A stretch of DNA of 64,000 nucleotides, taken from IMG/VR virus record IMGVR_UViG_2784746770_000001, positions 65,293-129,292 of that record; one strand, 5' to 3'. Positions 9,323-63,573 of this stretch are shown piece after piece. The notes under the pieces are model-generated. The model saw only the letters and a program-made list of their open reading frames with translations. It was not told where the DNA came from and ran no database searches. Source of the stretch: a virus. Taxonomy: Duplodnaviria > Caudoviricetes. The position numbers were made by a program, and so were the translations under genes. The stretch's first letter is position 1; every line of letters starts with the position of its first letter.

Positions 9323-11629
9323 TTGTGCCCGCACAAGGTGGCCGAGCACGGAGCCATGATGCCGTATGCCCGCGCGCGCTTCCAGCCCTCCCAGGCGGCG
9401 CGCCGCACAACAAGCCCTCCAGAAGGCGACAAATCGACCCATGGAGAGGCGCAGCTCACCCTTTTCGCGCTCCCCCATCCGGGTGCTCCGGAAGCGCGTC
9501 CGATTCCCCTCCAGCACCAGCTCGGCCTTCCCGGGGTGATGCTCGACCTGTCGCCGCGCGCCGAGCTGCGCGTGGACACCCGCGACGAACTCGGACGCTG
9601 GCAGCACGAGTACAAGGAGGTCCCGCTCGCCGGATTCACCCCGAGCGGACCGTACGCACTGCACCTCACGGACGATCAACACCGCTTCCGGTGGCTCGTG
9701 TTCGACCTCGACACCGCACAGGGCGCGGTCGGCCTCGACCTGGCCAGACTGCTCCGCCACCTCACCGAGGCCGGCCTGAGCTTCGTCACGGTTGCCTCCG
9801 GCCCGACCGGCGGACGCCACGTGTGGGTCGCGGCGACCACTCCCCTGCCGCACCGACTCGTCCGGCTCATCAACACCGCGGCGAAGAAGGTCCTGCCCAC
9901 CCTCGACACCTCCGTGCTCAGCAACCCCGCCACCGGGGCCGTACGGCCGATCGGGTCACCACACCGCGACGGCGGCCGCGCCACGCTGATCTCCCCGGAC
10001 ACCGAGGTCGAAGCCGCTCGCCGCCTCACGCCGGCGTCGTGCGGCAATCCCGTCGAAGCGTTCGAGCGCCTGGCGGTCCTTCTCGGCGCCGACCCCCGAG
10101 ACGCCACGCCTGCCCCGCTCCAACGTCGATCCACAGTCGTCCACGACCGACTGGGCCCCCGCCTCGCCGGCACCCCTTCCACGCTCCTGGACACCGACAC
10201 CGCCGCCACCCTGCGAGCCGTCCCCGACGACGCGAGCCGCGCCCTGGCCTCCCTCCTCGTCCGCCTGGCCGTCCGCCGCTGGACGTGGCCGATGGTCCAG
10301 GCCCTGCTGAGGCAACAGGAGTACCGCCGCGGCGCGCTGCTGCACGCCTGCACCCGCCGCCGCGCCGGGTACCGCGTACAGGTGTCCGACGAGGCCGCCG
10401 AACGGCGCCTGGCCCGACAGTGGAGCCGGTGCGTCGAGTTCGCCTCGCGGATGCCCGCGCGGGATCTCCACGACGACGATGTCCCCTGGAACGATCGCCT
10501 GCGCGATGTTGTCGCTCTGGTCGTCGCGCTCCAGACAGCTGCCGACGCCACTCCTGACCGCTGGGCCATCGAGTCGGGCCCTGCAGACCGCGCGGTGCTC
10601 GACCTGCTGTGCCTGTACGCCCTCAAGGCGGGCACGCTCATTCTCGACCTCGATATCCGTCGGGCCGCCCTCGGCACCGGACACGGCCGGTCCACGATGG
10701 CGAGGGCCACCGGCCGGCTCGCTCTCGACGGGTTCGTCGTCGCCCGGGTGAGCGCAGGAAAGGCGGGAACCTGGGAACTGCTCCCCCTCGATGACGACCA
10801 CCCTCTCGCCCACGCCGCCTTCCAGATCGACATCAATGCCTGGGGTGGGACACAAGGACCCCGCCCATGGGTCGAGGCCGCCCGCACCAACATGGTGGAG
10901 AAGCTCCAGGAGCGTCTGGAGCACATCAGGGCGGACGTCTTCTCTTACGGCCGACTCGGCCACGGACCCACACGACGGCCAGGAGGAATCGGTCACCACA
11001 CGGGCCGGCTGTACGCGGCACTTGCTGAGCACCGGGCGGGCCCGCTGAGCGTTGCCGCGCTCATGGCCGCCACCGGATACGAACGCCGCTGCGTGAAGCG
11101 GAAGCTGGTCCGGATGCAGGAGCTCATGGTCGTGGCCAGGGCCTCTCTCGTACCCCACCATGAATGCCCGACCTGCCACGCGGCTCCGGGAAGTGCTTGT
11201 CGTACGCCCAGCGGGAGCGCCCTGCCGAAGGGTGAGAGGCACGCTCAGAGGACGGCGCTGGCCCGGGCCCGAGCGAAGGCCGGGTACTGGAGGGCGCGTG
11301 AAGGGGCCTGTCTGGTCCAGGCGGCCCAGACGATCGCCGTGCACGGGACGGTCGCCCGTCGGGCCCGGTTCTACGCGGCCGAGATCGAGCTGTGGAACTG
11401 GTGGCAGGACGAAGAGGACTGGATGCGCAGCCCGAAGAAGGGCGTCCGCCGGGGGCCGAGCACGCACGAGGACCAGACGGAAGTCGTCTTGACGACGCTG
11501 GGGCCGTGGAAGCAGCGTCGTCGGTATCCGCGGCATGTGGTCACCTCGGCCGATGGTGGGCGGAGGCCCGGTCGGGCAGACCACAAAGCCGCTTGGGAGC
11601 GGGTCCTGCGTCGGATGCCGATGGTGTAG
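9323..11629 (+). CDS. Putative replication initiator with AEP primase-polymerase-like N-terminus, HTH and Zn finger (start uncertain)
   Basis: WLVFDLD (DxD) and VASGPTGGRHVWV (SG..G.H) AEP motifs; C-terminal CPTCHAAPGSAC. Confidence 0.7.
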   Translation: MCPHKVAEHGAMMPYARARFQPSQAARRTTSPPEGDKSTHGEAQLTLFALPHPGAPEARPIPLQHQLGLPGVMLDLSPRAELRVDTRDELGRWQHEYKEVPLAGFTPSGPYALHLTDDQHRFRWLVFDLDTAQGAVGLDLARLLRHLTEAGLSFVTVASGPTGGRHVWVAATTPLPHRLVRLINTAAKKVLPTLDTSVLSNPATGAVRPIGSPHRDGGRATLISPDTEVEAARRLTPASCGNPVEAFERLAVLLGADPRDATPAPLQRRSTVVHDRLGPRLAGTPSTLLDTDTAATLRAVPDDASRALASLLVRLAVRRWTWPMVQALLRQQEYRRGALLHACTRRRAGYRVQVSDEAAERRLARQWSRCVEFASRMPARDLHDDDVPWNDRLRDVVALVVALQTAADATPDRWAIESGPADRAVLDLLCLYALKAGTLILDLDIRRAALGTGHGRSTMARATGRLALDGFVVARVSAGKAGTWELLPLDDDHPLAHAAFQIDINAWGGTQGPRPWVEAARTNMVEKLQERLEHIRADVFSYGRLGHGPTRRPGGIGHHTGRLYAALAEHRAGPLSVAALMAATGYERRCVKRKLVRMQELMVVARASLVPHHECPTCHAAPGSACRTPSGSALPKGERHAQRTALARARAKAGYWRAREGACLVQAAQTIAVHGTVARRARFYAAEIELWNWWQDEEDWMRSPKKGVRRGPSTHEDQTEVVLTTLGPWKQRRRYPRHVVTSADGGRRPGRADHKAAWERVLRRMPMV

Positions 11630-12233: not shown

Positions 12234-12770
12234 TCAGGCAAGGCGGCGGACGGCTGCCCAGGTCTGGAAACCGTCGGGAAGCGTGGTCGAGCCGCACTCC
12301 TCGGTGAACACGTGGGCAGCGTGGAGCATGCGGTCCGGGGCCGTGAAGAACGGGCCGGTGTCCTCCTCGACAGCGACGAAGACGTGCTCGTCGTCCATCC
12401 AGATCTGGCACCACAGGGTGGTCCCCCAGGGCTGCCGGGCCGCCGCCGACCCCGCCAGTTCGGCAAGGCAGACCAGAGCCCGATGGGTCGTGACCTCGGC
12501 CCTGGGGTCGGTTGAACCCCGGAAGAAGAGCGTGTTCAGGAGCATGCCGCCCGTCTGCCGGGCGTCGGCGGCGCTGTCGGCGCCCGCGGTGAGGCAGAAG
12601 CGGCTGGAGCGCGCGGCGAGGAGCCGCGCGGCGTCGGTGGCGGCGTGATCAGGCCGGAGGGCCACTTGCTGTGTCGGTATGCCGCGGCGCTCGCCAGCGC
12701 TGGCCAGGACATTCGTGCGGGTGGTCATGGCGCGGCGGAAGCCCGCGGGCGAGTCCGGCGTCTCGGTCAC
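12234..12770 (-). CDS. Divergent HATPase/RsbW-like ATP-binding regulatory protein
   Basis: THRALVCLAELAGSA..LWCQIWMDDEHVFVAVEED and terminal QTWAAV resemble the Streptomyces ATP-binding proteins found divergent from XRE regulators. Confidence 0.55.
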   Translation of the reverse strand: MTETPDSPAGFRRAMTTRTNVLASAGERRGIPTQQVALRPDHAATDAARLLAARSSRFCLTAGADSAADARQTGGMLLNTLFFRGSTDPRAEVTTHRALVCLAELAGSAAARQPWGTTLWCQIWMDDEHVFVAVEEDTGPFFTAPDRMLHAAHVFTEECGSTTLPDGFQTWAAVRRLA

Positions 12771-12840
12771 TCTGTCTCGTCCCCGGTCGGTGGCGGATGG
12801 CTGGCTGCGATGGGCCGGGGCGCTTCACCCCCTGACCTCC

Positions 12841-12908
12841 CTAAACAATAGTTGCCTAGCATCGACCGACCGTCACATATGCCTGTGGCATAGTCAACTA
12901 TTGTTTAG
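12841..12908. promoter_or_regulatory. Operator pair: perfect 14-bp inverted repeat in a divergent promoter region
   Basis: CTAAACAATAGTTG (12841-12854) / CAACTATTGTTTAG (12895-12908); AT-rich. Confidence 0.75.
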
Positions 12909-12938
12909 AGCCCCTCCAGCGAGAGCAGCAACCCGCCC

Positions 12939-13454
12939 ATGCCCCACACACGCAGGCAGTCGTCCGAGAGCGACAGAAAGCCCGTGCCGGCCCCCGGCCC
13001 CGGCTCGTCGTTCGCCGATCGACTGAACTACCTGTTCGACAACCTGCGGCCGAGCGCCAGCGACGAGGACTACCGGAAGAAGGCCACCGCGACCGGGGAG
13101 TTCTCGAACGCCTACGTTGCCGACGCTGCCTCCGCCCTCGGTCCCATGAGCATCACGGCGTCCTACATCGGTCAGCTACGGAACCCGGCCGAATCGAAGA
13201 ACCCTAGCGGCAAGGTCATACAGACCCTGGCGAATTTCTTCGAAGTGAAGGCCGGCTACTTCCTCGACGACGAGGTCACACAGTCGATCGTCGGCCAGTT
13301 CGACCTGGTGAGGAAGCTGAACGACCAGGGCGTCACGAACATCGCCCTCCGGGTCGCCGACCTGTCTCCAACGAGCCGAGAGGCTGTGCTCGCCCTGGTC
13401 AATCAGGTGCGGCAGTTGGAGGGGCTACCCCCCGAGCCAGAAGAGCTGAAGTAA
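12939..13454 (+). CDS. XRE/EspR-like HTH regulator
   Basis: FADRLNYLFDNLRP..SNAYVA..ITASYIGQLR..NPSGKVIQTLANFFEVKAGYFLDD matches the EspR-like pattern. Confidence 0.85.
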   Translation: MPHTRRQSSESDRKPVPAPGPGSSFADRLNYLFDNLRPSASDEDYRKKATATGEFSNAYVADAASALGPMSITASYIGQLRNPAESKNPSGKVIQTLANFFEVKAGYFLDDEVTQSIVGQFDLVRKLNDQGVTNIALRVADLSPTSREAVLALVNQVRQLEGLPPEPEELK

Positions 13455-13508
13455 CTTGAACATGTTCAAACGACGATGAAGAACCGCACAGCCACGGAGG
13501 GGAGAACC

Positions 13509-14093
13509 ATGTGGAAGAGACGGCGTCGAGCGCGCCCCTCCCACCTGGAGCCGGACGAAGGGCACCAGCTCGCCCGGGAGTTCGTGACCGGCCTCAGCCT
13601 TCCGCCGGCACGCAGCGTCCGCGACCTCATCCCGTTCGTCGAGGACTACACCGGCCGGCCGATCCGGCTTGTCCCGGTCACCGAACGGGACGCCTTGCCG
13701 GACATGGGAGAGAGCTCGTCCCCATGCGGCGCGTGGCTTGCCACCGAAACGACGGACCACATCTTCTACGACGCCATGACCAGCGTCGCCCACCAGGACC
13801 TCATCATCGGCCACGAGCTCGCGCACATCCTCCGCGAGCATCGGAGGCTCGACGACGAGAGGAAAGCTGACAAACTCAGCGGCCTCGGTGACCTCGGCGG
13901 TCTGCTTCCCGACATGACGCCGAACATGATCAAGATGCTGCTCGGCCGCACCCGATACTCCGTACCGAAGGAGGCGGACGCCGAGCACATCGGTTCGATG
14001 CTCCAGGAGCACGTCAACTCCACCTCGCACCTAGTCGCCGCCCACCGCGACGACCCGATATCCCGCACGCTCCTGCGAAGGCCGCCTCGTTGA
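13509..14093 (+). CDS. ImmA/IrrE-like HEXXH metallopeptidase-domain regulator
   Basis: CGAWLAT..DHIFYD..HQDLIIGHELAHIL..EADAEHIG. Confidence 0.8.
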   Translation: MWKRRRRARPSHLEPDEGHQLAREFVTGLSLPPARSVRDLIPFVEDYTGRPIRLVPVTERDALPDMGESSSPCGAWLATETTDHIFYDAMTSVAHQDLIIGHELAHILREHRRLDDERKADKLSGLGDLGGLLPDMTPNMIKMLLGRTRYSVPKEADAEHIGSMLQEHVNSTSHLVAAHRDDPISRTLLRRPPR

Positions 14094-15313
14094 AAGACCT
14101 CCTGCACCCCCTGTGCTTGATCCTCGCCGGCACCGGGTTCCTCGTCCTGCTCCGCGACCTGACCCGTGACCGACGAGGGGATCCGGCCCTCGGCGCTCTT
14201 GCCTGGGCCTTCCTCGCCTCCGCCCTCAGCTACGCCGTCTCCATGACCTGGGTCTGGATCCGGGTCGACGACTTCTTCGGTGTGACGAACATCGTCGTCC
14301 CGATCGCCCAGGGCCTGGTGATCCTCGTCCTGACGCTCCAGAGCATTGTCCTGGCCTACTGGTCCCGGCCGGCCGAACAGGCACGGCGCCGGGCCAGGCA
14401 CCTGCTGATCGCGGGGGTGACGGTGATCGCGGGGATGGCGGCACTCTTCGTGCTGCTCACCCCAGCCACGCAGCGGCCGGTGGACTTCTCGCTGTACTAC
14501 GCCCACGACCCCTTCTACCAGGCGTACGTGCTGCTGTACTTCGGCACGTACTCGGCCGCCGAGATCTACCTCGCCCGGTCCTGCTGGAAGTACGCGCGCA
14601 CGGCTGCCCCCTCGGTCGCATTCGGCCTGCGTCTGGTCGCTGTCGGCGCCACCATCACCCTCGGCTACAGCGGCATCCGCATCGCCGGCATCATCGGCGC
14701 CGAGGCCGGATTCAGCGTCAGCCACCTCAACAACTTCGCCTGGGCCTGCGGCGACATCGGTGCCGCCATGACCCAGGTCGGCTACTTCATCCCGGTCATC
14801 GCCGCCCGGCTCGGCCCCTTCCTCGCTCTCGCCCGCGAGCACTACGCCTACGCCCGGCTCGACAACCTGTGGACCACCCTGGTTCGCAGCGACCCCAGCG
14901 TCGTCCTCCAGCCGCCGGTCTCCCAGCGGCAGTACCTGCGCGAGCGCAAGGGCCTCCACTACGAGCTCATCCGGCGCCGTGCCGAGATCCGCGACGCCAT
15001 GATCACGCTGCGCCCGTACCTCAGCGCCGAGGACCGCCGCGCCATCGAGGAGCGCCGGCGCCGCCCGTGGAGGTTCGGCCGCTGGCTCACAGCCGCCGTC
15101 ACCGCCGACCAGGTCCAGCGCGCCCTCGTCCTCCACGCGCAGGGCGCGCCGGTCGACGACCCCACCGAGTACGCCGACCGCGCGCTAGCGCTCGACACTG
15201 CCCGCGCTGAGGAACTACACCTCCTGCGTGTCGCCGCCTTCTTCTACGCGCCGCCGCAGCTCGCCCCCTCTGCTTCTTCCACCAGTACGACCTCTTCAGG
15301 AGCACGCACTTGA
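14090..15313 (+). CDS. MAB_1171c-family multi-pass membrane protein with a DUF6545-like C-terminus
   Basis: About 7 TM helices followed by LIRRRAEIRDAMITLRPY; usual context after an HEXXH regulator. Confidence 0.8.
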   Translation: MKDLLHPLCLILAGTGFLVLLRDLTRDRRGDPALGALAWAFLASALSYAVSMTWVWIRVDDFFGVTNIVVPIAQGLVILVLTLQSIVLAYWSRPAEQARRRARHLLIAGVTVIAGMAALFVLLTPATQRPVDFSLYYAHDPFYQAYVLLYFGTYSAAEIYLARSCWKYARTAAPSVAFGLRLVAVGATITLGYSGIRIAGIIGAEAGFSVSHLNNFAWACGDIGAAMTQVGYFIPVIAARLGPFLALAREHYAYARLDNLWTTLVRSDPSVVLQPPVSQRQYLRERKGLHYELIRRRAEIRDAMITLRPYLSAEDRRAIEERRRRPWRFGRWLTAAVTADQVQRALVLHAQGAPVDDPTEYADRALALDTARAEELHLLRVAAFFYAPPQLAPSASSTSTTSSGART

Positions 15314-16878
15314 TGTCCCGCCGCACTCTCCTCGCCGCGTCCGCGGCCGTCGCCGGCGCCCTCGGCATAGCCCGCCCTGCCGCCGCCGAGGAGGGCAGCG
15401 CCGCCCGCGCCGCCACCCCGCTCTACCTCGCCCCCGCCCGCCAGCAGCTCACCGCGCTCCGCAACGGCTACATCTCCAGCCGGGACCTGCTCGAACAGCT
15501 CCTCGCGCACCACGCCAAGCACAACCCGAGCCTGAACGCCGTCGCCACCCTCGACGCGGCTGCCGCCCGTGCCGCCGCCGACAAGGCCGACCAGTACCTC
15601 GCCAGCACCGGCTGGACCCTCGGCCCGCTCCACGGCCTGCCGATCACTGTCAAGGACGCTCTGGAGACGAAGGGGATGCGCACCACCTGCGGCTCCCCCG
15701 ACCTCACCGGCCACATCCCCACCACCGACGCCGACGCCGTCGCCCTCCTGCGCGCCGCCGGCGCCATCATCATCGGCAAGACCAACGTGCCGGTCATGTG
15801 CCAGGACATCCAAACGAGCAACCCGCTGTTCGGCACCACGAAGAACCCCTTCGCTGCCGACCGCACCGCCGGCGGCTCCTCCGGCGGCCCCGCGGCCGCC
15901 GTCGCCGCGGGCCTGTCCTCCCTCGAAGTCGGCTCCGACCTCGCCGGATCGCTTCGCCTCCCGGCCGCGTACTGCGGCGTCTACGCCCTGCGGACCAGCC
16001 GCGGCACCTCCCCCATCGTGCCCACGCGCGGTCACATCCCGCGCCCGCCCGGCTGGCTCACCAGCAGCGACATGCTCTCCCTCGGACCGATCGCCCGCAC
16101 GCCCGCCGACCTCGACCTCCTCCTGGACGTGCTCGCCGCCCCGGCCCCGGCCGACGCGTCCGCCTGGCAGATCAACCTCCCGGCCCCCACGAAGACGTGC
16201 CTGAGCCAGTACCGGATCGGTATCTGGGCCGATGACGCGTACTGCCGCGTCGGCGCCGATGTCCGCGGCCTGCTCGCCACGGTCGCCCAGGCCGTCCGCA
16301 CCGCCGGCGCGCGCGTCGACGACACCACGAAGCCCGTCGACTTCGCGGCCAGCGACAAGTTGTTCCAGCGCCTGATGTACGCGACGTCCGCCGCCAGCTC
16401 CACCGACGCCGCGTTCGCCGGCGAGGTCGCGGCCGCCGACGCCCTCGCCGACGACGACCCGAGCGCCCTCTACCTCAAGAGCCGCACCATGCGACACCGC
16501 GACTGGGCGCGCGCCGACGAGGACCGGCAGAAGCTCCGCGCCACCTGGGCCTCCTACTTCGAGACCCACGACATCCTCATCACCCCCGCGGCCCCGACCG
16601 CCGCCGTCCTCGACCAGACCTCCGTCCCGGTCCCCCAGCGGTACATCACCGTCGACGGCCAGAAGCGCTCGTACTACGACCAGACCGCGTGGATCAACCT
16701 CGCCGGACCGGTCGGCCTCCCCTCGCTCGTCGTCCCGGCCGGCCAGACCGCCGACGGCCTCCCGCTCGCCATCCAGCTCATCGGCCCGCACCTGACCGAC
16801 CGCACCCTCATCTCCGTCGCCCAGCTCCTCGCGAACGTCCTTCCGACCGCCCCGAAGGCCCCGGCGCTCGCCGGATAG
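15313..16878 (+). CDS. Tat-exported amidase-signature family amidase
   Basis: SRRTLL Tat signal with an AAA cleavage site; GPLHGLPITVKD, GKTNVP, GGSSGG and GSDLAGSLRLPAAYCG motifs. Confidence 0.92.
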   Translation: MSRRTLLAASAAVAGALGIARPAAAEEGSAARAATPLYLAPARQQLTALRNGYISSRDLLEQLLAHHAKHNPSLNAVATLDAAAARAAADKADQYLASTGWTLGPLHGLPITVKDALETKGMRTTCGSPDLTGHIPTTDADAVALLRAAGAIIIGKTNVPVMCQDIQTSNPLFGTTKNPFAADRTAGGSSGGPAAAVAAGLSSLEVGSDLAGSLRLPAAYCGVYALRTSRGTSPIVPTRGHIPRPPGWLTSSDMLSLGPIARTPADLDLLLDVLAAPAPADASAWQINLPAPTKTCLSQYRIGIWADDAYCRVGADVRGLLATVAQAVRTAGARVDDTTKPVDFAASDKLFQRLMYATSAASSTDAAFAGEVAAADALADDDPSALYLKSRTMRHRDWARADEDRQKLRATWASYFETHDILITPAAPTAAVLDQTSVPVPQRYITVDGQKRSYYDQTAWINLAGPVGLPSLVVPAGQTADGLPLAIQLIGPHLTDRTLISVAQLLANVLPTAPKAPALAG

Positions 16879-16944: not shown

Positions 16945-16976
16945 AGGGGCCAGGGTTCGTGTGAACCCTGGCCCCT
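16945..16976. terminator. Bidirectional hairpin terminator
   Basis: 14-bp perfect stem AGGGGCCAGGGTTC-gtgt-GAACCCTGGCCCCT between convergent genes. Confidence 0.8.
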
Positions 16977-17010: not shown

Positions 17011-18294
17011 TCAGATCGTACGCAGCCCCGCCCGAGGCGCGGTCACGCCCACCCGCCACCGAGACGGCTGCGCCGCACCCTTCCAGCGCGGCACACCGCT
17101 CGGGCGCGGCACGGCCCGCTCCGGCCGCTCACCCGGCAGGTCCCACCCGCTGATCACGACCTCGGGATCGATCAGCGCCTCCACCGCTGGCCAGACCATG
17201 AACGGCGACAGGCGGACCAGCTCGGCCAACTGCTCGCGCTCCTCTTCGGACTGCCCCAGCCCGGCCGCGGGCTGCGACACCTGCTCACGGGCGGAGGCCA
17301 GCAAGGTGGGCCGGTCAAGGTGGATCGGCACGCCGTGCAGGCCGTCCCACGTGCCGTCGCTGTCGATCAGGAGGCGCAGCTCGGGCCGCCCCGTGTTGGA
17401 GTCGTGCTCCAGGTGCACGAAGACTCCCCGGACCTGCGGGAGCGTCCCGGCCTCCGCCAGCGGAGTCGACGGCCAGGCGATGTAGACGCAGTGCTGCGGC
17501 AGTCCTTCGAGGATGCGCTCGCGCGGCAGCGGCTTCTCGGCGGGGACATCGGGCTGGGCCCACGCTGCTGCCACGTGCTTGGCCGCCGCCTCGTCGTCGA
17601 CCCAGTACACGCCCTTGGTCAGCCACCAGGCCGAGAGCGCCGCCACCCGCGCGATGTCGCCCGCGCGCGGGTCGCCCGGGAACCCGCCCCCGTGGGGGTA
17701 CACGACACCGGCCGCCGCTCCCATCGGCACCCAACACCAGTCCGGCCACGCGCCGACCTCCTGGGTCCCCTTGCGGTCCGCGTGCTGGGCCATCTCGGCG
17801 AGGACACCGGGGTACCGCTTGCGCATCTCGCGGACCAGGCCCATGCAGCGGTCGGCCGCCTCCGCGGTCACCTTCTCCGGATCGGACGGCGCGGTCTCGT
17901 ACGACTCCGCCGCCGGGGCCGGGACGGTGAACAGCGGCGTCGCCGGGACCTCCTCCACGCCGTCGCCGTACTCGTCGTCCGCCTCGTCCGTGATCAGACC
18001 CAGGGTGAGGTCATAGGGCAGCTTGCAGACGACGAAGCCGTCCACCATCCGCCACCCGGCCCGCTCGACCGACTTCACCGGCGCGGGCACCAAGTTGTCC
18101 AGCAGCGTCTTCCGGGCCGGGGCGTCGCCGAGCTCGCCCAGGTCGAGAACCACGAGGATGCTGTGCCCGCCGTCCAGCGTGTAGCAGTGCCAGGGGGCCA
18201 GGTCCTCGGGCAGCTTCCGCCCGTAGGTGCGTCCCGGCATGGTCATGCCGGCCAGTACGGTCGCGATGACCATGCCCGGGTCTACGGTGCTCAC
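17011..18294 (-). CDS. Hypothetical protein
   Basis: GAGGAGAGG RBS; 427 aa; high-GC3 codons. Confidence 0.8.
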   Translation of the reverse strand: MSTVDPGMVIATVLAGMTMPGRTYGRKLPEDLAPWHCYTLDGGHSILVVLDLGELGDAPARKTLLDNLVPAPVKSVERAGWRMVDGFVVCKLPYDLTLGLITDEADDEYGDGVEEVPATPLFTVPAPAAESYETAPSDPEKVTAEAADRCMGLVREMRKRYPGVLAEMAQHADRKGTQEVGAWPDWCWVPMGAAAGVVYPHGGGFPGDPRAGDIARVAALSAWWLTKGVYWVDDEAAAKHVAAAWAQPDVPAEKPLPRERILEGLPQHCVYIAWPSTPLAEAGTLPQVRGVFVHLEHDSNTGRPELRLLIDSDGTWDGLHGVPIHLDRPTLLASAREQVSQPAAGLGQSEEEREQLAELVRLSPFMVWPAVEALIDPEVVISGWDLPGERPERAVPRPSGVPRWKGAAQPSRWRVGVTAPRAGLRTI

Positions 18295-19333: not shown

Positions 19334-19546
19334 TTACGCGGATTCAGCGAAGCACTCCGGGCACGTCGAGGCGGGCTCCTCAGGGTGCTCGGAGCACACC
19401 TCCATGACCGTGTAGGGGGTGTCTCCGTCGTCTTCGGCTATGAGTTGGGCGGCCACGGCCAGGGCCTCCGCGCGGCCGGCATCGCCGTAGAACGGGCCGT
19501 CGACCATGGCGGCGCCGTCCTCGAAGACGCCGTACTCGGCGCTCAC
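19334..19546 (-). CDS. Small hypothetical protein
   Basis: GTGA-coupled to the upstream gene; C-terminal C..H...CPEC. Confidence 0.65.
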   Translation of the reverse strand: MSAEYGVFEDGAAMVDGPFYGDAGRAEALAVAAQLIAEDDGDTPYTVMEVCSEHPEEPASTCPECFAESA

Positions 19547-20994
19547 TTCGCGGCTCCGGCCGGGCGCCGGTAGCGGTTGCACTCCTGGTCGTGCGGCCGG
19601 CCATGGCCCTCCTGGGCGTAGCAGTCGCAGTGACGTGAGACAGGAGCGGTGATCCAGTCGGCGACGGCGGCGGCCAGGACGGTGGAGTCCGCGAGGCAGT
19701 CGAGCACGGCAGAGTCGCCCCCGTTGATGTACACCGGGTCGCCGACGGCGTTGCCGTACTCGTCGTGCAGGAACATCGACCACCCGGTGTGCTCGTCGGC
19801 CGGATGGTCGACCGAGCCGTCACGATCGGCGATCGACAGGAAGCCGACAGCACCCCGGGTGAACGGGACCGGCACCCGGTACTGGGCGCTGCTGCTGTCG
19901 TAGACGCACGACAGCTCCCGGCCGGGGGTAATCCCGTACTCGCCGAGCACGGCCAGCAACCGGGCCCCGGCCGCGGGCACCGGCGCGGCGGCGGGAGGCT
20001 GCTCGTAGAGCGCCGCCGCGGCCTCCCACCACGTCTGGCGCAGGGCAGCGTCCTCCCGAGCCTGGGCGCACTGCCGGCGCTGTGTCCCCATGCCGCCGGC
20101 CAGCGGGGCGTACAGGTGCGGGATCGAGGGGCGCAGCAGGTCCGCGTACTCCTTCCCGCCGAGGAAGATGACGTCGGCGTCGTCCAGCCCGAGGCCGGCC
20201 GCGTGCTGGCCCATCCTCTCCGCCGTGACGGCGTTCTCGTCGCCGATCCTGACGTTGTACGGGTGGAGGGGGCGGGTAATGGGGACGAGCCCGTGGAGCG
20301 CGGAGGCTATGAAGATCAGAGACGGGTCGGTCAGGGCGTCGGCCACGCTGCGCAGGGATCGGTGGTAGTCGCCGATGTACAGCTCTCCGGCCGGGTAGCC
20401 CGGCAGGGAGCCGCCGTACTCGTTGAAGCCCGGGTGCGGCCGCTTCTTCTCCCCGCAGGCAATGATGACGACCCGTCGCCGCCGGACTCGGATGCCGCCG
20501 CGCTGCCGGGCGTACTCGCGGCCGAGCTCGGTGAGGTAGAGCGACCGGCCGGTGTCCTCCCACGTTGCCGGCGTCCTGTCCCACGACGCGGGCCGGATGT
20601 CGGCGTAGCCCTTCGCGTTGACCTGCCGGAGGGTGGGCCCGCGGAACCACGGCTCGTGCCGGTTCTCCCCATGCGCGTCGTCGCGCCCGGCCACAAGCTG
20701 GTCGGGCCGACGGGCGGCAGTGATCACAGCTTCGTGCTGCCGTTCGGGCAGCTTCGGCAGAACGCCCACGCTGGCCGGAAGGGACTGGAGGGACTGAGGG
20801 GACGGGTTCGCTTCACGCCATGCGTCCAGGGCCGCACGGCCGGCGTCGGTCACCCGGCGCGTGCCGTCGACCTGCCTGACGATCAGGTGGTCGGCTTCGA
20901 GCTTGGCCATGGCCGCCGGATGTCCGGTGACGAGCCCGTTGTCGTTGCTGTCGAGGATCTTCGCGCCTGTGGGGCTGAGCAGAGAGGTGGACAT
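19543..20994 (-). CDS. Multidomain protein with a DUF6884-like domain
   Basis: VVIIACGEKKR..PAGELYIG..IFIASALHGLV..PYN..FLGGKEY..PLAGGMG; GAAGGA RBS. Confidence 0.75.
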   Translation of the reverse strand: MSTSLLSPTGAKILDSNDNGLVTGHPAAMAKLEADHLIVRQVDGTRRVTDAGRAALDAWREANPSPQSLQSLPASVGVLPKLPERQHEAVITAARRPDQLVAGRDDAHGENRHEPWFRGPTLRQVNAKGYADIRPASWDRTPATWEDTGRSLYLTELGREYARQRGGIRVRRRRVVIIACGEKKRPHPGFNEYGGSLPGYPAGELYIGDYHRSLRSVADALTDPSLIFIASALHGLVPITRPLHPYNVRIGDENAVTAERMGQHAAGLGLDDADVIFLGGKEYADLLRPSIPHLYAPLAGGMGTQRRQCAQAREDAALRQTWWEAAAALYEQPPAAAPVPAAGARLLAVLGEYGITPGRELSCVYDSSSAQYRVPVPFTRGAVGFLSIADRDGSVDHPADEHTGWSMFLHDEYGNAVGDPVYINGGDSAVLDCLADSTVLAAAVADWITAPVSRHCDCYAQEGHGRPHDQECNRYRRPAGAAK

Positions 20995-21037
20995 GGGGTT
21001 CCTTCGGGGTACGAGGCGACCGAGGGGCCGCGGTGGG

Positions 21038-22021
21038 TCAGGAGTCGGTGCGGGAGAGCCAGGCGGCGACGGCCCGGGCGCACGTGGCGCTCTGCTCGGC
21101 ACATCCCATCTCGGCGGAGGCGGCGTAGACCTGGTCGACGTACTCGCCGGTCTCGTCGTGCACGTGGACGGACCACGGCTCGTCGTGCTCCCGAACGGGC
21201 CGGGTGGCCAGCTCGCCGGCGTACAGCAGCAGGTGCGGCCGGGTGTAGACGTTCTCCTCGGCGGTCCCCGGCTCGGTCGCCATCACTCGGTAGGTGACTC
21301 CGTCGACGCCGTCCAGGTAGGAGGTGAGGCCGTACGCGTTCAGCGCAGCGTCGAGCACGTCGCCTTCGGTGGGGGCGGTACGGACGGGGGAGAGTTCGAT
21401 GACGCGATCCGGGGTGGCGATGAACACGGTCCCGGCGCCGTCGCTGAGGATCCATGCTCCGTCGGCCTTCGCCCAGTTGTAGACGACCTTCTCTGCGAAC
21501 TCGCGGCTCCAGGGCCCGGGCGCGGCCGTGGCCCAGCCGCCGGCCGTGTGCCTGTCCCGGCGGCGATCCACAGCCGTGAACTCGAACGCGGCGAGCGCGG
21601 TGGGGTAGGCGGCGCGGCTGATCGGTTCGGCCCGCATGCCTGCCGGGAGCGGCTGGGTGGACGCGAGGTCGGCGGCGGTGGCATTCCACAGGGCGATCTC
21701 GGCGGCCCGAAGAACGGCCCCGGTCGCGGCGCACAGCGCTTCGGCGGACTTCTTGGCCTGGGTCGCCTCCTGCCGGTACGCGGTGCGGCTGCGGATTCCT
21801 GCCACGCGGCGCTGGCTGGGCGGCAGGTACTCGTCGGCCCGCAGGAGCATCGCCAGTGTGCTTTCGGTCCGGCTGCTGTGTCTCCGGGCCATGTGCAGGG
21901 CGTGCTTCGCGGCGGTGTGCTTCTCGTCGGCGGCCTGTCGCTCGGCCGTCAGTTTCCGGACCAGGTGGGCGCGGCGGGTGGTGACGGCGGACGCGATGTC
22001 GCCGGGGGTCGGTACGGACAT
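21038..22021 (-). CDS. Hypothetical protein
   Basis: GGAG RBS. The C-terminal HDEPWSVHVHDETGEYVDQVY resembles HTGWSMFLHDEYGNAVGDPVY at the end of the neighbouring protein. Confidence 0.75.
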   Translation of the reverse strand: MSVPTPGDIASAVTTRRAHLVRKLTAERQAADEKHTAAKHALHMARRHSSRTESTLAMLLRADEYLPPSQRRVAGIRSRTAYRQEATQAKKSAEALCAATGAVLRAAEIALWNATAADLASTQPLPAGMRAEPISRAAYPTALAAFEFTAVDRRRDRHTAGGWATAAPGPWSREFAEKVVYNWAKADGAWILSDGAGTVFIATPDRVIELSPVRTAPTEGDVLDAALNAYGLTSYLDGVDGVTYRVMATEPGTAEENVYTRPHLLLYAGELATRPVREHDEPWSVHVHDETGEYVDQVYAASAEMGCAEQSATCARAVAAWLSRTDS

Positions 22022-53587: not shown

Positions 53588-55552
53588 TCAACCACCGACC
53601 GTGGTCCGCTCCTTCTCCCTCACGGGCGCGGCCGCCGGCGCCGTACGCCGCGGTGCGACCCTGAACCGCATCGCCCGGTTCTCGTCCTTCCCGGCCTCCA
53701 CGACCCAGCCCTTCGCCCGCCACTGCTGCACCGGCCCGTCCGCCGACGTCCTGGAGCCGACGTTCGGCAGACCGAGAGCCACCAGCCCGTTGAGCGTGAT
53801 GCCCGCCGGGCCCGCCTTCTCGATCGCCTGCCATAGCGCGAGCCGGTGATCCGGGATCTCCGACCCGTCAGGGAAGGTTGGCACGACGTGCAGCGTCGGT
53901 CGCTCCCCGCCGCCCCCGCCGTCCGGCGGCCCCTGAGGCGGCTCCGGTGGCTTCGGCCGCTCCTCCGACGGCCGCTCCGAGACCAGATCCACCGCCTCAA
54001 CACCGCCGTACCGGTGCACGGTCGCCGCGATCTGGTCGTCCGACATCATGAATGCGCGGCGCTCCATCGGCTCGGCGTGCTCCGGCGCGCGCGAGGAGAT
54101 CATGAACTTGCCCGGCAGGTTCAGCTCGTTCAGGTACCAGCCGGCGCCGAGCGCCCCCGGGCCCATGATCAGGTTGATCGGGGTGGTCTCCGTGACGCCC
54201 AGACCGATGCGGATCTGGTACTGCTGTCGGGCGTCGGTGTCGCCACCGAACACCTTCTTCGAGGGCGACTGCGTGGCCTCCACGAAGTGGATCGCGACGA
54301 ACCGGGCGAGCTGGCGCAGCGACTCCAGCTCCGGGGACTGCTTCGGATCCTGGCGGATCAGCTCGGCGAGCTCGTCGACGATGACGAACCAGGCCGTGCC
54401 GTGAACGCCGGGCACCCACTTCCGCACCGGCTTCCCCGTCTCCAGGCTCAGCTGGGCCAGGATCCTCCCGCGCCGCTCCACCTCCTGGCGGACCAACCGC
54501 AGCAGCGCCCGGGCCTTCGCCGGAGTGTCGGCGAAGGCCCGCGCGCAGGCGCGCCATGGCCCGAGCTCGACGGCGCCCGGCTTCATGTCCACGAGCAGCA
54601 TCTCGGCGTCGGTCGCGGCCGCGATGTTCCCGGCCAGGACGTTCAGCAGGCCCGATTTGCCGTTGTCGGTGGCCCCGCCGATCAGGGTGTGGCTGTAGAG
54701 CAGGCAGACCCGCACCTCCGACCCGTCCCGGGACCGGCCGAGGGTGATCTCCTCTGTGATGGAGGTGATCGACGGCCCCTCCCACGGGATGGTCTCGGCC
54801 AGAGGGTCGTGCACCTGCATCCGGACGAGGAGCTGGTTGTCTTGGCCGCCGATGGACAGCAGCAGCCGCCCGGGCAGCCCCAGGTTCGCCGAAAGCTGCT
54901 GGCGCTGGGCGATGACGGCCTCCGCAGACGTCCTCCGGCCCGGCGGCAACGTCACCAGCGCCGTCCACCCGTTGTCGGTGAAGTGCAGCGCTGTGACGTC
55001 CAAGGGCGGGATCCCCAACGCCGTCAGGGCGCGGCGCAGCGCGGTCTCCTCCTCGCTCTCGCCGGTCACCCCCGGCGCCCCGGCATCGATCCCGAGCGCC
55101 CCGGGCAGCGAGCCCGCCTTTGCGGCGTCGATCTGGAGACGCATCCGCTCGTCCCGGCGGCGCGACAGCCAGGGCACGTACGCGCAGTAGGCGCCCAAGG
55201 TGGTAATCCCGGTCGCGACGAAGGCAGGGGCGGACGGGCCGGCCGCCGCGTTGATCCACGTGTCGCCGAGCACGACGGTCATCCCCGCGCCCGCCGCCGC
55301 GAGAACGGTCTTCTTGTGCTTCACGCCACCGGCCGTCAGCGCCGCCGTGGCGACGGTGCTCAGCCCGTAGACGACGTGCTCGCCCACGCTGACGTCTGAG
55401 ACGTGGTGCAGCCAGCCCAGACCCGTCAGCGAGGCCGAGGCGGCGGCGGGAGCGAGCTCGTAGCGGCGGCGAAGGCACCAGCGGTACGCCGTACCGGCCA
55501 CACTCGAAACGGCTATGGCGGCGCGCAGCAGCGCGCGGTCCCTGGCGGGCAT
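53588..55552 (-). CDS. traB: FtsK/SpoIIIE-family conjugative DNA translocase (TraB-like)
   Basis: N-terminal TMs, HTLIGGATDNGKS Walker A, VDMK, IVDELAEL Walker B, LARFVAIHFVEATQ, C-terminal winged helix. Confidence 0.88.
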   Translation of the reverse strand: MPARDRALLRAAIAVSSVAGTAYRWCLRRRYELAPAAASASLTGLGWLHHVSDVSVGEHVVYGLSTVATAALTAGGVKHKKTVLAAAGAGMTVVLGDTWINAAAGPSAPAFVATGITTLGAYCAYVPWLSRRRDERMRLQIDAAKAGSLPGALGIDAGAPGVTGESEEETALRRALTALGIPPLDVTALHFTDNGWTALVTLPPGRRTSAEAVIAQRQQLSANLGLPGRLLLSIGGQDNQLLVRMQVHDPLAETIPWEGPSITSITEEITLGRSRDGSEVRVCLLYSHTLIGGATDNGKSGLLNVLAGNIAAATDAEMLLVDMKPGAVELGPWRACARAFADTPAKARALLRLVRQEVERRGRILAQLSLETGKPVRKWVPGVHGTAWFVIVDELAELIRQDPKQSPELESLRQLARFVAIHFVEATQSPSKKVFGGDTDARQQYQIRIGLGVTETTPINLIMGPGALGAGWYLNELNLPGKFMISSRAPEHAEPMERRAFMMSDDQIAATVHRYGGVEAVDLVSERPSEERPKPPEPPQGPPDGGGGGERPTLHVVPTFPDGSEIPDHRLALWQAIEKAGPAGITLNGLVALGLPNVGSRTSADGPVQQWRAKGWVVEAGKDENRAMRFRVAPRRTAPAAAPVREKERTTVGG

Positions 55553-62238: not shown

Positions 62239-63573
62239 ATGAGCGATGCAGCGACCGAAGCGACTGAGGATCAGGAGATCGTCTTCGGCGAGCTCGTGGA
62301 CGACGGGCCCGGGCACCTGCCCGCCAACGTCGTCATCGAGGCCGCGCCGGCGCCCGCCTTCCACATCACCCGCCACACCGTGCTCGGCGAGGGCGAGCTG
62401 CCGCCCCGCGTCGACGAGGTCGCCCGCTTCACCACCGCGGACTTCTACGTTCCCGACTCCGTGAAGCAGCGCTACGACAACCGCGGGTCTCGCAACACCC
62501 GGGTGAACCGGGACGCCACCCGCAAGCGCTACCGCACCTGGTGCGAGCAGCAGAAGCCCCGCCGCGCCGCGTGGCCGGAGACCACCACCTCCAACCTCGC
62601 CGCGTACATCGGCCACCTCATGGAGACTGGCCAGGGCAAGCCTCGCGAGCCATACCAGCCGTACAGCCCCGACAGTCTCCTCGCCTACTGCACCCACATC
62701 ACCACCTGGTATCCCAAGGGCAAACGGCCCGACGACTCCGCGATCCGCGAGATGATCGAGGGCTACCGGCTGGAGGAGTACATCCCGGCCGGCGGCGAGA
62801 AGAAGGAGGCCGCGGCCCTGACCATGAAGTACCTGGTCACGGTCCTCGACCGCATCGACGAGACCACCCGGATCGGCCGCCGCGACGCCGCCATGCTCGC
62901 GCTCCAGTACGGCATGCTCTACCGCTCGGTCGAGGTCACACACCTGCTCGTCAAGAACGTCCGCATCCACGCCGAGGGCGTCTCGGTGTGGACCTCGAAG
63001 TCCAAGACCAGGAGGAAGGGCAACGGCCGGTGGCGGTTCATCCGCGACCGCGAGGACCTGCGACTCGTCGCCCGCGTCCGGGCCTGGCTCGCCGACCTCC
63101 GCGACCTGCGCGAGCCCAGCGCCACCGAGCAGAACCCGACCGACGGCGAGAGCGCCTACCTCCCGAACAAACCCCTCTTCCGGGCCCTGACAACGAAGGG
63201 TGACCTCACCCGCCGCCAGAACGCCAAGGTCAGCGGCCAGTTCCTCAGTGGCCGGTCCGTCAACGTGATGGTCAAGGCCCGCGTGGCGGCCGTCGGCCTC
63301 TCCTACATCGACGGGCTCAAGGTCACCTCGCATTCGCTGCGCGCTGGCCCGAACACTGACATGGCCGAGGCCCAGGTGCCGCTCGAAGAACGCAACGAAG
63401 CCGGCGACTGGAGCCGGGACTCCACCCTCGCCGATGATGTTTACAACCGGCCCGACGGCTCCGTCGACATCACCAAGCACGACCCGCTCGACGCCGTTCC
63501 GCTGTACGGCGGACCGGCGCACGCCGCCGTGGCGCACGCCCGCGCGGAGGCCACCGGCGCGAAAGAGGCATAA
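62239..63573 (+). CDS. Cre-like tyrosine recombinase
   Basis: RDAAMLALQYGMLYRSVEV (R), SKSKT (K), HSLRAG (HxxR), AGDWS (W), DDVYNR (Y). Confidence 0.9.
   Translation: MSDAATEATEDQEIVFGELVDDGPGHLPANVVIEAAPAPAFHITRHTVLGEGELPPRVDEVARFTTADFYVPDSVKQRYDNRGSRNTRVNRDATRKRYRTWCEQQKPRRAAWPETTTSNLAAYIGHLMETGQGKPREPYQPYSPDSLLAYCTHITTWYPKGKRPDDSAIREMIEGYRLEEYIPAGGEKKEAAALTMKYLVTVLDRIDETTRIGRRDAAMLALQYGMLYRSVEVTHLLVKNVRIHAEGVSVWTSKSKTRRKGNGRWRFIRDREDLRLVARVRAWLADLRDLREPSATEQNPTDGESAYLPNKPLFRALTTKGDLTRRQNAKVSGQFLSGRSVNVMVKARVAAVGLSYIDGLKVTSHSLRAGPNTDMAEAQVPLEERNEAGDWSRDSTLADDVYNRPDGSVDITKHDPLDAVPLYGGPAHAAVAHARAEATGAKEA

Follow-up and report, generated by a model that had tools for sequence, protein, structure and literature searches.

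We analysed, entirely by computation, a window of 64,000 nucleotides that forms the right half (G000:C1:65293-129292) of a single virus record of 129,292 bp; the record is linear, with a CheckV completeness of 94% and a GC content of about 71%. Coordinates follow the numbering of the window unless they carry the prefix G000:C1, which refers to the whole record, and L-numbers denote the loci that were compared. On the plus strand, at 12939-16878, lie four genes which a first-pass annotation of the window had described as a tightly linked operon, and they hold up as such: an EspR-like helix-turn-helix (HTH) regulator of 171 aa (12939-13454), a presumed autorepressor; a putative, divergent ImmA/IrrE-like HExxH metallopeptidase of 205 aa (13476-14093); a MAB_1171c/DUF6545 membrane protein of 407 aa (14090-15313; hereafter the MAB protein), presumed to be a sensor; and an amidase-signature enzyme of 522 aa with a twin-arginine signal (15310-16878), the presumed exported output enzyme. 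A fifth gene, for a degenerate HATPase_c_2-like protein of 178 aa, diverges from them (12234-12770, minus strand). All five open reading frames were confirmed at these coordinates, with a GC content at third codon positions (GC3) of 0.85-0.96 (0.89 in the divergent gene), values of the coding type. The four genes on the plus strand may constitute an autoregulated operon that responds to a signal, and the evidence bearing on this reading is the subject of the present report.

The HExxH and MAB genes overlap by 4 nt, stop over start, as do the MAB and amidase genes. The HExxH gene likely begins at ATG 13509, because this codon is preceded by a GGAGGGGAG ribosome-binding site and matches the MW.. 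start of the homologs. A profile built from HExxH homologs retrieved 32 loci in species-representative genomes, and 24 Streptomyces loci with close relatives were available for comparison. The order EspR-like gene, HExxH gene, MAB gene, amidase gene, all on one strand, is kept in 23 of these 24 (L022 ends inside the MAB gene), and the EspR-like gene comes first in the unit in every one. Across the Streptomyces loci the amidase shows the highest identity (67-79%); the MAB protein is at 54-69% and the two remaining proteins, HTH and HExxH, at 41-58%. Each of the 23 amidase loci keeps the motif RRT[LV][LIV] and has an amidase gene that begins within the MAB stop region, an overlap from which we predict that the amidase is translationally coupled to the MAB gene. 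In a quick IQ-TREE reconstruction of 65 MAB sequences, the amidase-linked proteins form a single clade of 23 (SH-aLRT 100%), within which the window, L005 and L006 make up a subclade (99%). The first-pass annotation had reckoned with the possibility that the amidase is a mere catabolic passenger; found in 23 of 24 loci, best conserved of the four genes and tied to one clade of MAB proteins, it is, on comparative grounds, an integral and co-conserved part of the unit. Contigs carrying the four genes range from 4.6 kb to 1.6 Mb, the linear plasmid pFRL6 (L107) also has them, and the portal protein of the element analysed here found no match in the genomes of L006, L009, L010 and L027 or in pFRL6. 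Most copies of the unit lie on contigs that show no trace of this phage. Since the contigs vary in this way and those genomes lack a portal match, the four-gene unit is not confined to this element.

The amidase scores 327 bits against PF01425 and bears the signature motifs VKD at 114, GGSSGG at 188 and GSLR at 213, which we take to be the Lys / cis-Ser / Ser catalytic triad. Against the PRK06170 equivalog model (NF004816) it reaches 491.9 bits, under the cut-off of 503, and thus falls outside that equivalog. Inspection of its N-terminus, MMSRRTLLAASAAVAGALGIARPAAA-EE, shows SRRTLL, a hydrophobic stretch and AAA-EE, and the enzyme is presumed to be exported by the twin-arginine translocation (Tat) pathway, in line with the terminal Tat amidase of the first-pass annotation. 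Among solved structures, ClbL (8es6; 4e-64) and the UMG-SP urethanases come nearest to it.

In the intergenic region between the divergent genes lie two exact inverted 14-mers, CTAAACAATAGTTG (12841-12854) and CAACTATTGTTTAG (12895-12908), previously proposed as an operator pair. They extend to 18-nt arms complementary at 17 of 18 positions, and among 300 shuffled versions of the intergenic sequence no inverted repeat exceeded 12 matches, against the 17 observed. The distal arm (CTAAACAATAGTTGCCTA; 12841-12858) is situated 71 nt upstream of the start of the divergent gene, the proximal arm (TAGTCAACTATTGTTTAG; 12891-12908) 30 nt upstream of the EspR-like start codon, and the 14-mer is unique to this promoter within the 129,292-bp genome, even when 3 mismatches are allowed. 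A core AACTAT(A/T)GTT, a 10-bp palindrome, occurs upstream of the EspR-like gene in all 24 related loci, where the site has the form GTCAACTATAGTT(T/A)(A/C)G or the variant AACTATTGTT and precedes the start codon by some 25-30 nt. It is present as two direct copies, 26 nt apart, in nine loci and as a single copy in 12; L005, L006 and the window have the inverted pair, which is also present in L108 (plasmid NZ_CP107821.1). The comparison of loci strongly supports these sites as places where the local regulator binds, and AACTAT(A/T)GTT is the candidate operator of the EspR-like protein. A sigma-70 consensus scan found no promoter. The sequence TGG-CATAGT (12886-12894), which lies before and overlaps the proximal arm, may be an extended -10 element, and the proximal site of the element-type copies would therefore be located over the transcription start. 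Two further palindromes were noticed near these sites. One, ATGCCTGTGGCAT (12879-12891), lies between the operator arms, overlaps TGG-CATAGT and is kept in the window, L005 and L108 but not in L006. The other, the perfect 14-bp palindrome TTGAACATGTTCAA (13456-13469), directly follows the EspR-like stop codon; it was considered as a second operator and dropped because it has no counterpart at the same place in the 24 related loci.

The first protein of the operon aligns end to end with EspR (PDB 3qf3; E 6.6e-16, query residues 21-163 to chain residues 2-131), including both the HTH and the C-terminal dimerisation domain. The second, for which a relationship to ImmA/IrrE peptidases had been suggested, carries HELAH at residues 113-117 and has no predicted transmembrane (TM) segment. 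Direct searches of its sequence against Pfam, NCBIfam and PDB returned nothing; PF06114 was matched by 23 of 65 relatives at E <=0.1, the best at 3.8e-05. In these 65 relatives G85, H113, E114 and H117 are invariant and R61, R158, E166, A169 and E170 are conserved in at least 90%, so that the HExxH zinc motif is accompanied by a conserved downstream acidic ligand (E166, E170). The structural model (predicted local distance difference test, pLDDT, 74.5) was compared by VIA-align with 48,161 chains and was closest to PrpR (6d2s, Z 7.4, the match lying in the COG2856 domain of the Mycobacterium tuberculosis protein), PprI (8sln, Z 7.1) and CapP (7t5t, Z 7.0), all three of them of the ImmA/IrrE type, the next matches being generic zincins at Z <=5.1; Foldseek placed IrrE first (E 0.1). 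A paralog on pFRL6 carries the RefSeq label 'ImmA/IrrE family metallo-endopeptidase'. We read the protein as a putative zinc peptidase of the ImmA/IrrE type, divergent and not proven as such. Known ImmA, IrrE and CapP peptidases cleave a neighbouring repressor.

The third protein is a member of the MAB_1171c family (NF042915, 198 bits against a cut-off of 100) and contains DUF6545 (PF20182, 69.6 bits against a cut-off of 24.4). Hydropathy and the positive-inside rule indicate seven helices with the N-terminus outside and outer loops of at most about 38 residues; the seven-TM (7-TM) bundle takes up approximately residues 1-248 and is followed by a helical, basic DUF6545 domain of 159 residues (~249-407), predicted to be cytoplasmic. 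An AlphaFold2 (AF2) model computed from 65 sequences reached a pLDDT of 91.4 and a predicted template-modelling score (pTM) of 0.83. Its best 50 matches in VIA-align were all G-protein-coupled receptors (GPCRs) or designed GPCR-like folds, with Z values of 14.4-18.6, above the level that the tool states for chance helical bundles, and with a root-mean-square deviation mostly of 3.4-4.3 Å (up to 5.0) over 199-245 residues, spanning model residues 1 to ~244. Among the matches listed by Foldseek, all 49 rows were likewise GPCRs (E 0.02-0.2). Judged by its model, the MAB protein looks like a receptor and not a transporter, which agrees with the proposal of the first-pass annotation. In Mycobacterium abscessus, according to the passages of PMC8707978 available to us, a MAB_1171c transposon mutant had minimal inhibitory concentrations (MIC) of 4 vs 16 for cefoxitin and 0.5 vs 2 for clarithromycin and formed about half the biofilm. 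The drug sensitivity of this mutant, as given in those passages, hints weakly at a link between the family and a xenobiotic or envelope-stress response.

Of 401 genomes sampled from the class, 40 have matches to NF042915 that pass its cut-off, often in several copies; the 14 control genomes have none. At the 30 best places (which include L053, from the unpublished genome G267) a HExxH relative is found directly upstream of the MAB gene in 28; one of the other two has a HExxH gene downstream alone, and one is a partial MAB match without it. Forty amidase-free places were refetched with longer flanks: none has an amidase, and the HExxH gene precedes the MAB gene directly in 37. Of these 40 places, 25 have an EspR-like gene upstream on the strand of the pair and 4 have it on the other strand, beside a neighbouring enzyme gene; L071 has one on the same strand at a distance of 1.9 kb upstream, and the one seen in L067 is part of the next cassette. 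The first-pass annotation had called the trio recurrent but uncharacterised, and both statements are borne out: the parts are named in annotation pipelines, and neither the literature listings searched nor the available passages of PMC8707978, the transposon-mutant paper cited above and the only paper found, describe the HTH/HExxH/MAB_1171c trio as a system.

What changes from place to place is the enzyme. Among 30 neighbouring open reading frames scanned, the same-strand gene abutting the MAB gene encodes a PAP2 protein (7), a flavin adenine dinucleotide (FAD)-dependent monooxygenase (5), a P450 (1), a short-chain dehydrogenase/reductase (SDR; 1) or a protein of no family (1), and convergent neighbours encode an α/β-hydrolase (4), an FAD monooxygenase (2), a bestrophin-like protein (2), a YkuD protein (1) or a protein of no family (1). 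More distant genes on the same strand are mixed (ATP-binding cassette (ABC) ATPase, epimerase, AMP-binding enzyme, a weak CHAP match, S11 carboxypeptidase). By this comparison the core, made up of HTH protein, peptidase and membrane protein, is constant, and the variable part is the enzyme; the classes concerned (amidase, PAP2, flavin monooxygenase, P450, hydrolases) typically modify small compounds, many of which are lipophilic. The first-pass annotation had recommended a survey of the fourth position, and its outcome speaks against the dedicated amide signal considered there: because other clades have unrelated enzymes, a generic module of sensor plus output enzyme fits better. The rule of one receptor clade per enzyme is clear for the amidase alone, because PAP2 and FAD, tried as single MAB clades, need 5 and 4 changes on the tree, no better than shuffled labels, and were rejected.

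Several other arrangements of the family were observed. Next to the amidase unit, and divergent from it, L023 (6817-8593), L025 (6741-8488), L027 (6743-8490) and L107, i.e., pFRL6 (1-2669), have a second peptidase-DUF6545 unit that is a paralog of the first, on the minus strand in each; in pFRL6 this second unit is followed by an FAD-dependent monooxygenase. An arrangement with the EspR-like gene on the opposite strand, downstream of the HExxH-MAB pair, occurs in L080 (4249-5718), L101 (4368-6230), L074 (5012-5539) and L077 (1903-2379; all minus strand); in L080 and L101 the EspR-like gene is directly upstream of the neighbouring gene (an α/β-hydrolase in L080) and the two converge on the pair. 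Tandem arrays of two or three MAB_1171c copies, sometimes each with its own peptidase and HTH gene, are found in L094, L097, L100, L086, L098 and L104.

Because a constant core is combined with a variable enzyme, the peptidase belongs to a family that cleaves repressors, the membrane protein resembles a transducer and the operator is local, we favour a model in which the four genes are an autoregulated, signal-responsive operon and ligand-gated proteolytic derepression drives an exported amidase, a reading to which we give close to even confidence. The identities and linkage of the genes, the conservation of the operator, the predicted fold and the pattern of neighbouring enzymes are results of the analysis; the binding partners, the cleavage step, the direction of signalling and the ligand are inferred, as follows. 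The EspR-like protein would bind the AACTAT(A/T)GTT operators at its own promoter and keep the operon low; in the phage-plasmid lineage, where the operators form an inverted pair, they would also face the divergent 178-aa gene. The 7-TM MAB_1171c/DUF6545 protein would sense a membrane-soluble or extracellular small molecule and, via its cytoplasmic DUF6545 domain, activate or release the soluble ImmA/IrrE-like zinc peptidase, which would then cleave the EspR-like repressor. Derepression would raise the expression of the whole operon, including the Tat-exported amidase, and the amidase might hydrolyse the inducing compound or a related amide outside the cell. The core of sensor, peptidase and repressor would represent a general actinobacterial module driving small-molecule enzymes that differ between clades, and the amidase unit would be a long-standing cargo of a Streptomyces phage-plasmid lineage, probably providing the lysogen with an inducible detoxifying or scavenging activity.

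Several points weigh against this model. The HExxH protein of the window has no PF06114 match even at E 10, and its fold matches all have Z <8, a range that can be reached by a common arrangement. The GPCR-like fold of the MAB protein is a prediction and shows no function. In 9 of the 40 amidase-free loci no EspR-like gene was seen within the fetched flank, and longer relatives in which peptidase and receptor are fused were not found, which is weak evidence. The motif AACTAT(A/T)GTT contains TATAGT/TATTGT and may in part be a -10 element, not purely an operator. We also know of no ImmA/IrrE/CapP switch that needs a membrane partner, and the 7-TM protein could therefore be an output and not the sensor.

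The last point leads to the main rival, which we regard as unlikely: a self-contained HTH plus ImmA-like stress switch, in which the peptidase itself senses the signal (DNA damage or infection) and the 7-TM protein and the amidase are both outputs, e.g., an envelope-remodelling or defence effector pair induced at prophage induction or superinfection. Such a switch would agree with the closest fold matches, of which PprI and CapP belong to switches of this kind, with the position of the unit on a phage-plasmid and with a gene order of regulator first and membrane protein and enzyme last, as in a regulator followed by its cargo. However, the MAB gene accompanies the peptidase almost always (28/30 and 37/40 places) while the enzyme changes, and because it stays with the peptidase it is core and not cargo. 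Moreover, the enzyme of L080 and L101 is separate from the HExxH-MAB pair, being transcribed together with the EspR-like gene from the opposite strand, and a GPCR-like bundle with a cytoplasmic domain looks like a transducer. Transport and phage-decision functions are less likely still. It is improbable that the four genes are a catabolic or scavenging operon in which a MAB_1171c transporter imports the product of the amidase and the HTH and peptidase genes merely regulate: the NCBIfam name of the NF042915 family, 'putative transporter', the placing of MAB_1171c among transport genes in the passages available of PMC8707978 and the coupling of the MAB protein to an amidase predicted to be exported all point in that direction, but no experiment was seen behind the 'transporter' label, the best 50 structural matches in VIA-align are all GPCR-type bundles with no transporter fold among them, and the family also adjoins enzymes such as P450, FAD monooxygenases and SDR, which are typically cytoplasmic and therefore call for no import step. 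Least probable is the circuit imagined in the first-pass annotation, in which a decision of the phage-plasmid (density, lysis-lysogeny or transfer) would depend on an amide signal that the amidase produces or removes and the 7-TM receptor reads. In its favour, the unit has been kept in synteny by at least three members of the element's kin (window, L005, NZ_CP107821.1), and the lineage has its own operator layout and divergent gene. Against it, 20 of the 23 loci with an amidase fall outside the group of the three element-type copies (four tested genomes of these 20, L009, L010, L027 and pFRL6, have no match to the portal); the operator 14-mer is found at no other promoter of the 129-kb genome, so that no connection with genes for lysis or transfer is visible; what diverges from the operon is one small gene and not an early operon; other clades replace the amidase by unrelated enzymes; and tblastn of the MAB protein found no relative in 50,697 phage records.

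The divergent 178-aa gene had been annotated as HATPase-like and as a part of the cassette. The open reading frame is real, and its product resembles a HATPase only remotely: by itself it has no match in Pfam (at E up to 10), NCBIfam or the PDB sequences, whereas PF13581 is matched by 2 of 22 members of its family, and the family profile finds the ATP-binding domain of DevS at E 0.0017. Its nearest clusters in a language-model comparison (0.93-0.96) are named 'sensor histidine kinase' and 'ATP-binding', and in lower-ranked clusters 31-42% of the members have HATPase_c_2. The position that would correspond to the N-box reads ELAGSA, without the Asn. A word-index search yielded three homologs, all on contigs of 127-131 kb, and an exhaustive search 25 cluster representatives; among the approximately 100 loci compared, L005 alone has a relative. 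The proposal that the gene belongs to the cassette was accordingly given up: in this comparison it is specific to the phage-plasmid lineage and stands outside the conserved unit. Because it shares the intergenic region that bears the operators, it may nevertheless be co-regulated with the operon.

Downstream of the operon, a GC-rich hairpin with a 13-bp stem and a 4-nt loop (16946-16975) lies between the amidase stop codon and a convergent gene that ends at 17011, and is likely a bidirectional terminator; a scan for consensus terminators, whose rule calls for a T-run, missed it. The cassette is flanked by a gene for a 768-aa protein with the phage zinc-finger domain Phage_zn_bind_8 (9323-11629, plus strand) and by one for a DUF6884 protein (19543-21102, minus strand), the latter kept beside the cassette on NZ_CP107821.1. 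The left half of the record encodes portal, head protease, major capsid, tape-measure and minor tail proteins, and the same element encodes a ParA-like ATPase (G000:C1:44763-45275, plus strand), an FtsK/SpoIIIE-type protein (53588-55552, minus strand) and a tyrosine integrase (62239-63573, plus strand); a domain search of the element found no ParB_N domain. The genes for portal and head protease are separated by one open frame, 6,062 aa long and with GC3 of the coding type, at G000:C1:15861-34049. The complete circular plasmid NZ_CP107821.1 (Streptomyces sp. NBC_00536; 132,597 bp) has a portal 69% identical to that of the element and the four-gene cassette, followed by the DUF6884 neighbour as in the window, and in Streptomyces sp. 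DT224 a contig of 134 kb (L005) encodes a portal with 68% identity and carries the cassette in synteny. Because both share portal and cassette, a phage-plasmid setting, as supposed in the first-pass annotation, is reasonable; we count the element as joining phage structural genes with extrachromosomal maintenance, the record itself being linear and having an integrase, and consider it a plausible Streptomyces phage-plasmid. A megablast search with the region returned no phage record and a single plasmid, in which the amidase gene alone matched. A search of sequencing runs gave no RNA run and two DNA runs, from one study, that share 0.14-0.21 of the words.

A wider proposal, which we advance tentatively and with less confidence than the model of the operon itself, is that MAB_1171c/DUF6545 proteins are bacterial receptors of GPCR-type fold that signal not through G proteins or kinases but through a partner ImmA/IrrE-like peptidase that destroys an EspR-like repressor. 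They would form a third, undescribed actinobacterial route across the membrane beside two-component systems and anti-sigma factors, with receptor clades matched to their own enzymes and mobile on phage-plasmids and linear plasmids. If this is true, a family named 'putative transporter' and present in 40 of the 401 sampled genomes would consist of receptors, and a 7-TM sensor, a soluble zinc peptidase and a repressor would together be a small, transferable means of inducing enzymes of small-molecule modification. EspR-type regulators would gain a defined signal input, and a way would open to trace what induces many orphan amidases, monooxygenases and phosphatases of antibiotic producers and what these enzymes act on. 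Temperate Streptomyces phage-plasmids would then carry sense-and-degrade modules as lysogenic-conversion cargo. The small set of genes and the operator make the model directly testable in Streptomyces.

The individual parts of the unit have relatives among known proteins and systems. With ClbL and the UMG-SP urethanases the amidase shares the amidase-signature fold and the signature motifs, but it has a twin-arginine signal and is coupled to the regulatory trio. The regulator is similar over its full length, HTH and C-terminal dimerisation domain included, to EspR (Rv3849) of M. tuberculosis, from which it differs in having about 20 extra N-terminal residues and in sharing an operon with a peptidase and a membrane protein. 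An HTH repressor adjoining a HExxH peptidase is also the arrangement of ImmR/ImmA (ICEBs1), DdrO/IrrE-PprI (Deinococcus) and CapH/CapP (cyclic-oligonucleotide-based antiphage signalling systems, CBASS), which consist of an XRE-type repressor and a COG2856/M78 peptidase; these lack an obligate membrane partner, whereas the subfamily of the window is nearly always followed by a MAB_1171c/DUF6545 gene, and its repressor is EspR-like. Staphylococci have, in BlaR1/BlaI/BlaZ and MecR1/MecI, systems in which a sensor in the membrane, a step by a zinc peptidase and repressor cleavage control a secreted amide-bond hydrolase, and the likeness of the window to BlaR1/BlaI/BlaZ, including paired operators at a divergent promoter, is one of logic only. 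BlaR1 contains its M56 peptidase within the sensor and has a large penicillin-binding outer domain, whereas the window has a separate, soluble ImmA/IrrE-like peptidase and a sensor that is a 7-TM bundle with short loops; BlaI is a winged-helix protein and the presumed repressor of the window is EspR-like, so that the window has neither sensor and M56 peptidase in one protein nor a BlaI-type repressor and stands outside the BlaR1/BlaI family. Compared with the annotation of its own family as 'putative transporter', the member in the window has the predicted fold of a GPCR-like 7-TM bundle, and within the MAB_1171c family its clade alone is coupled to an amidase.

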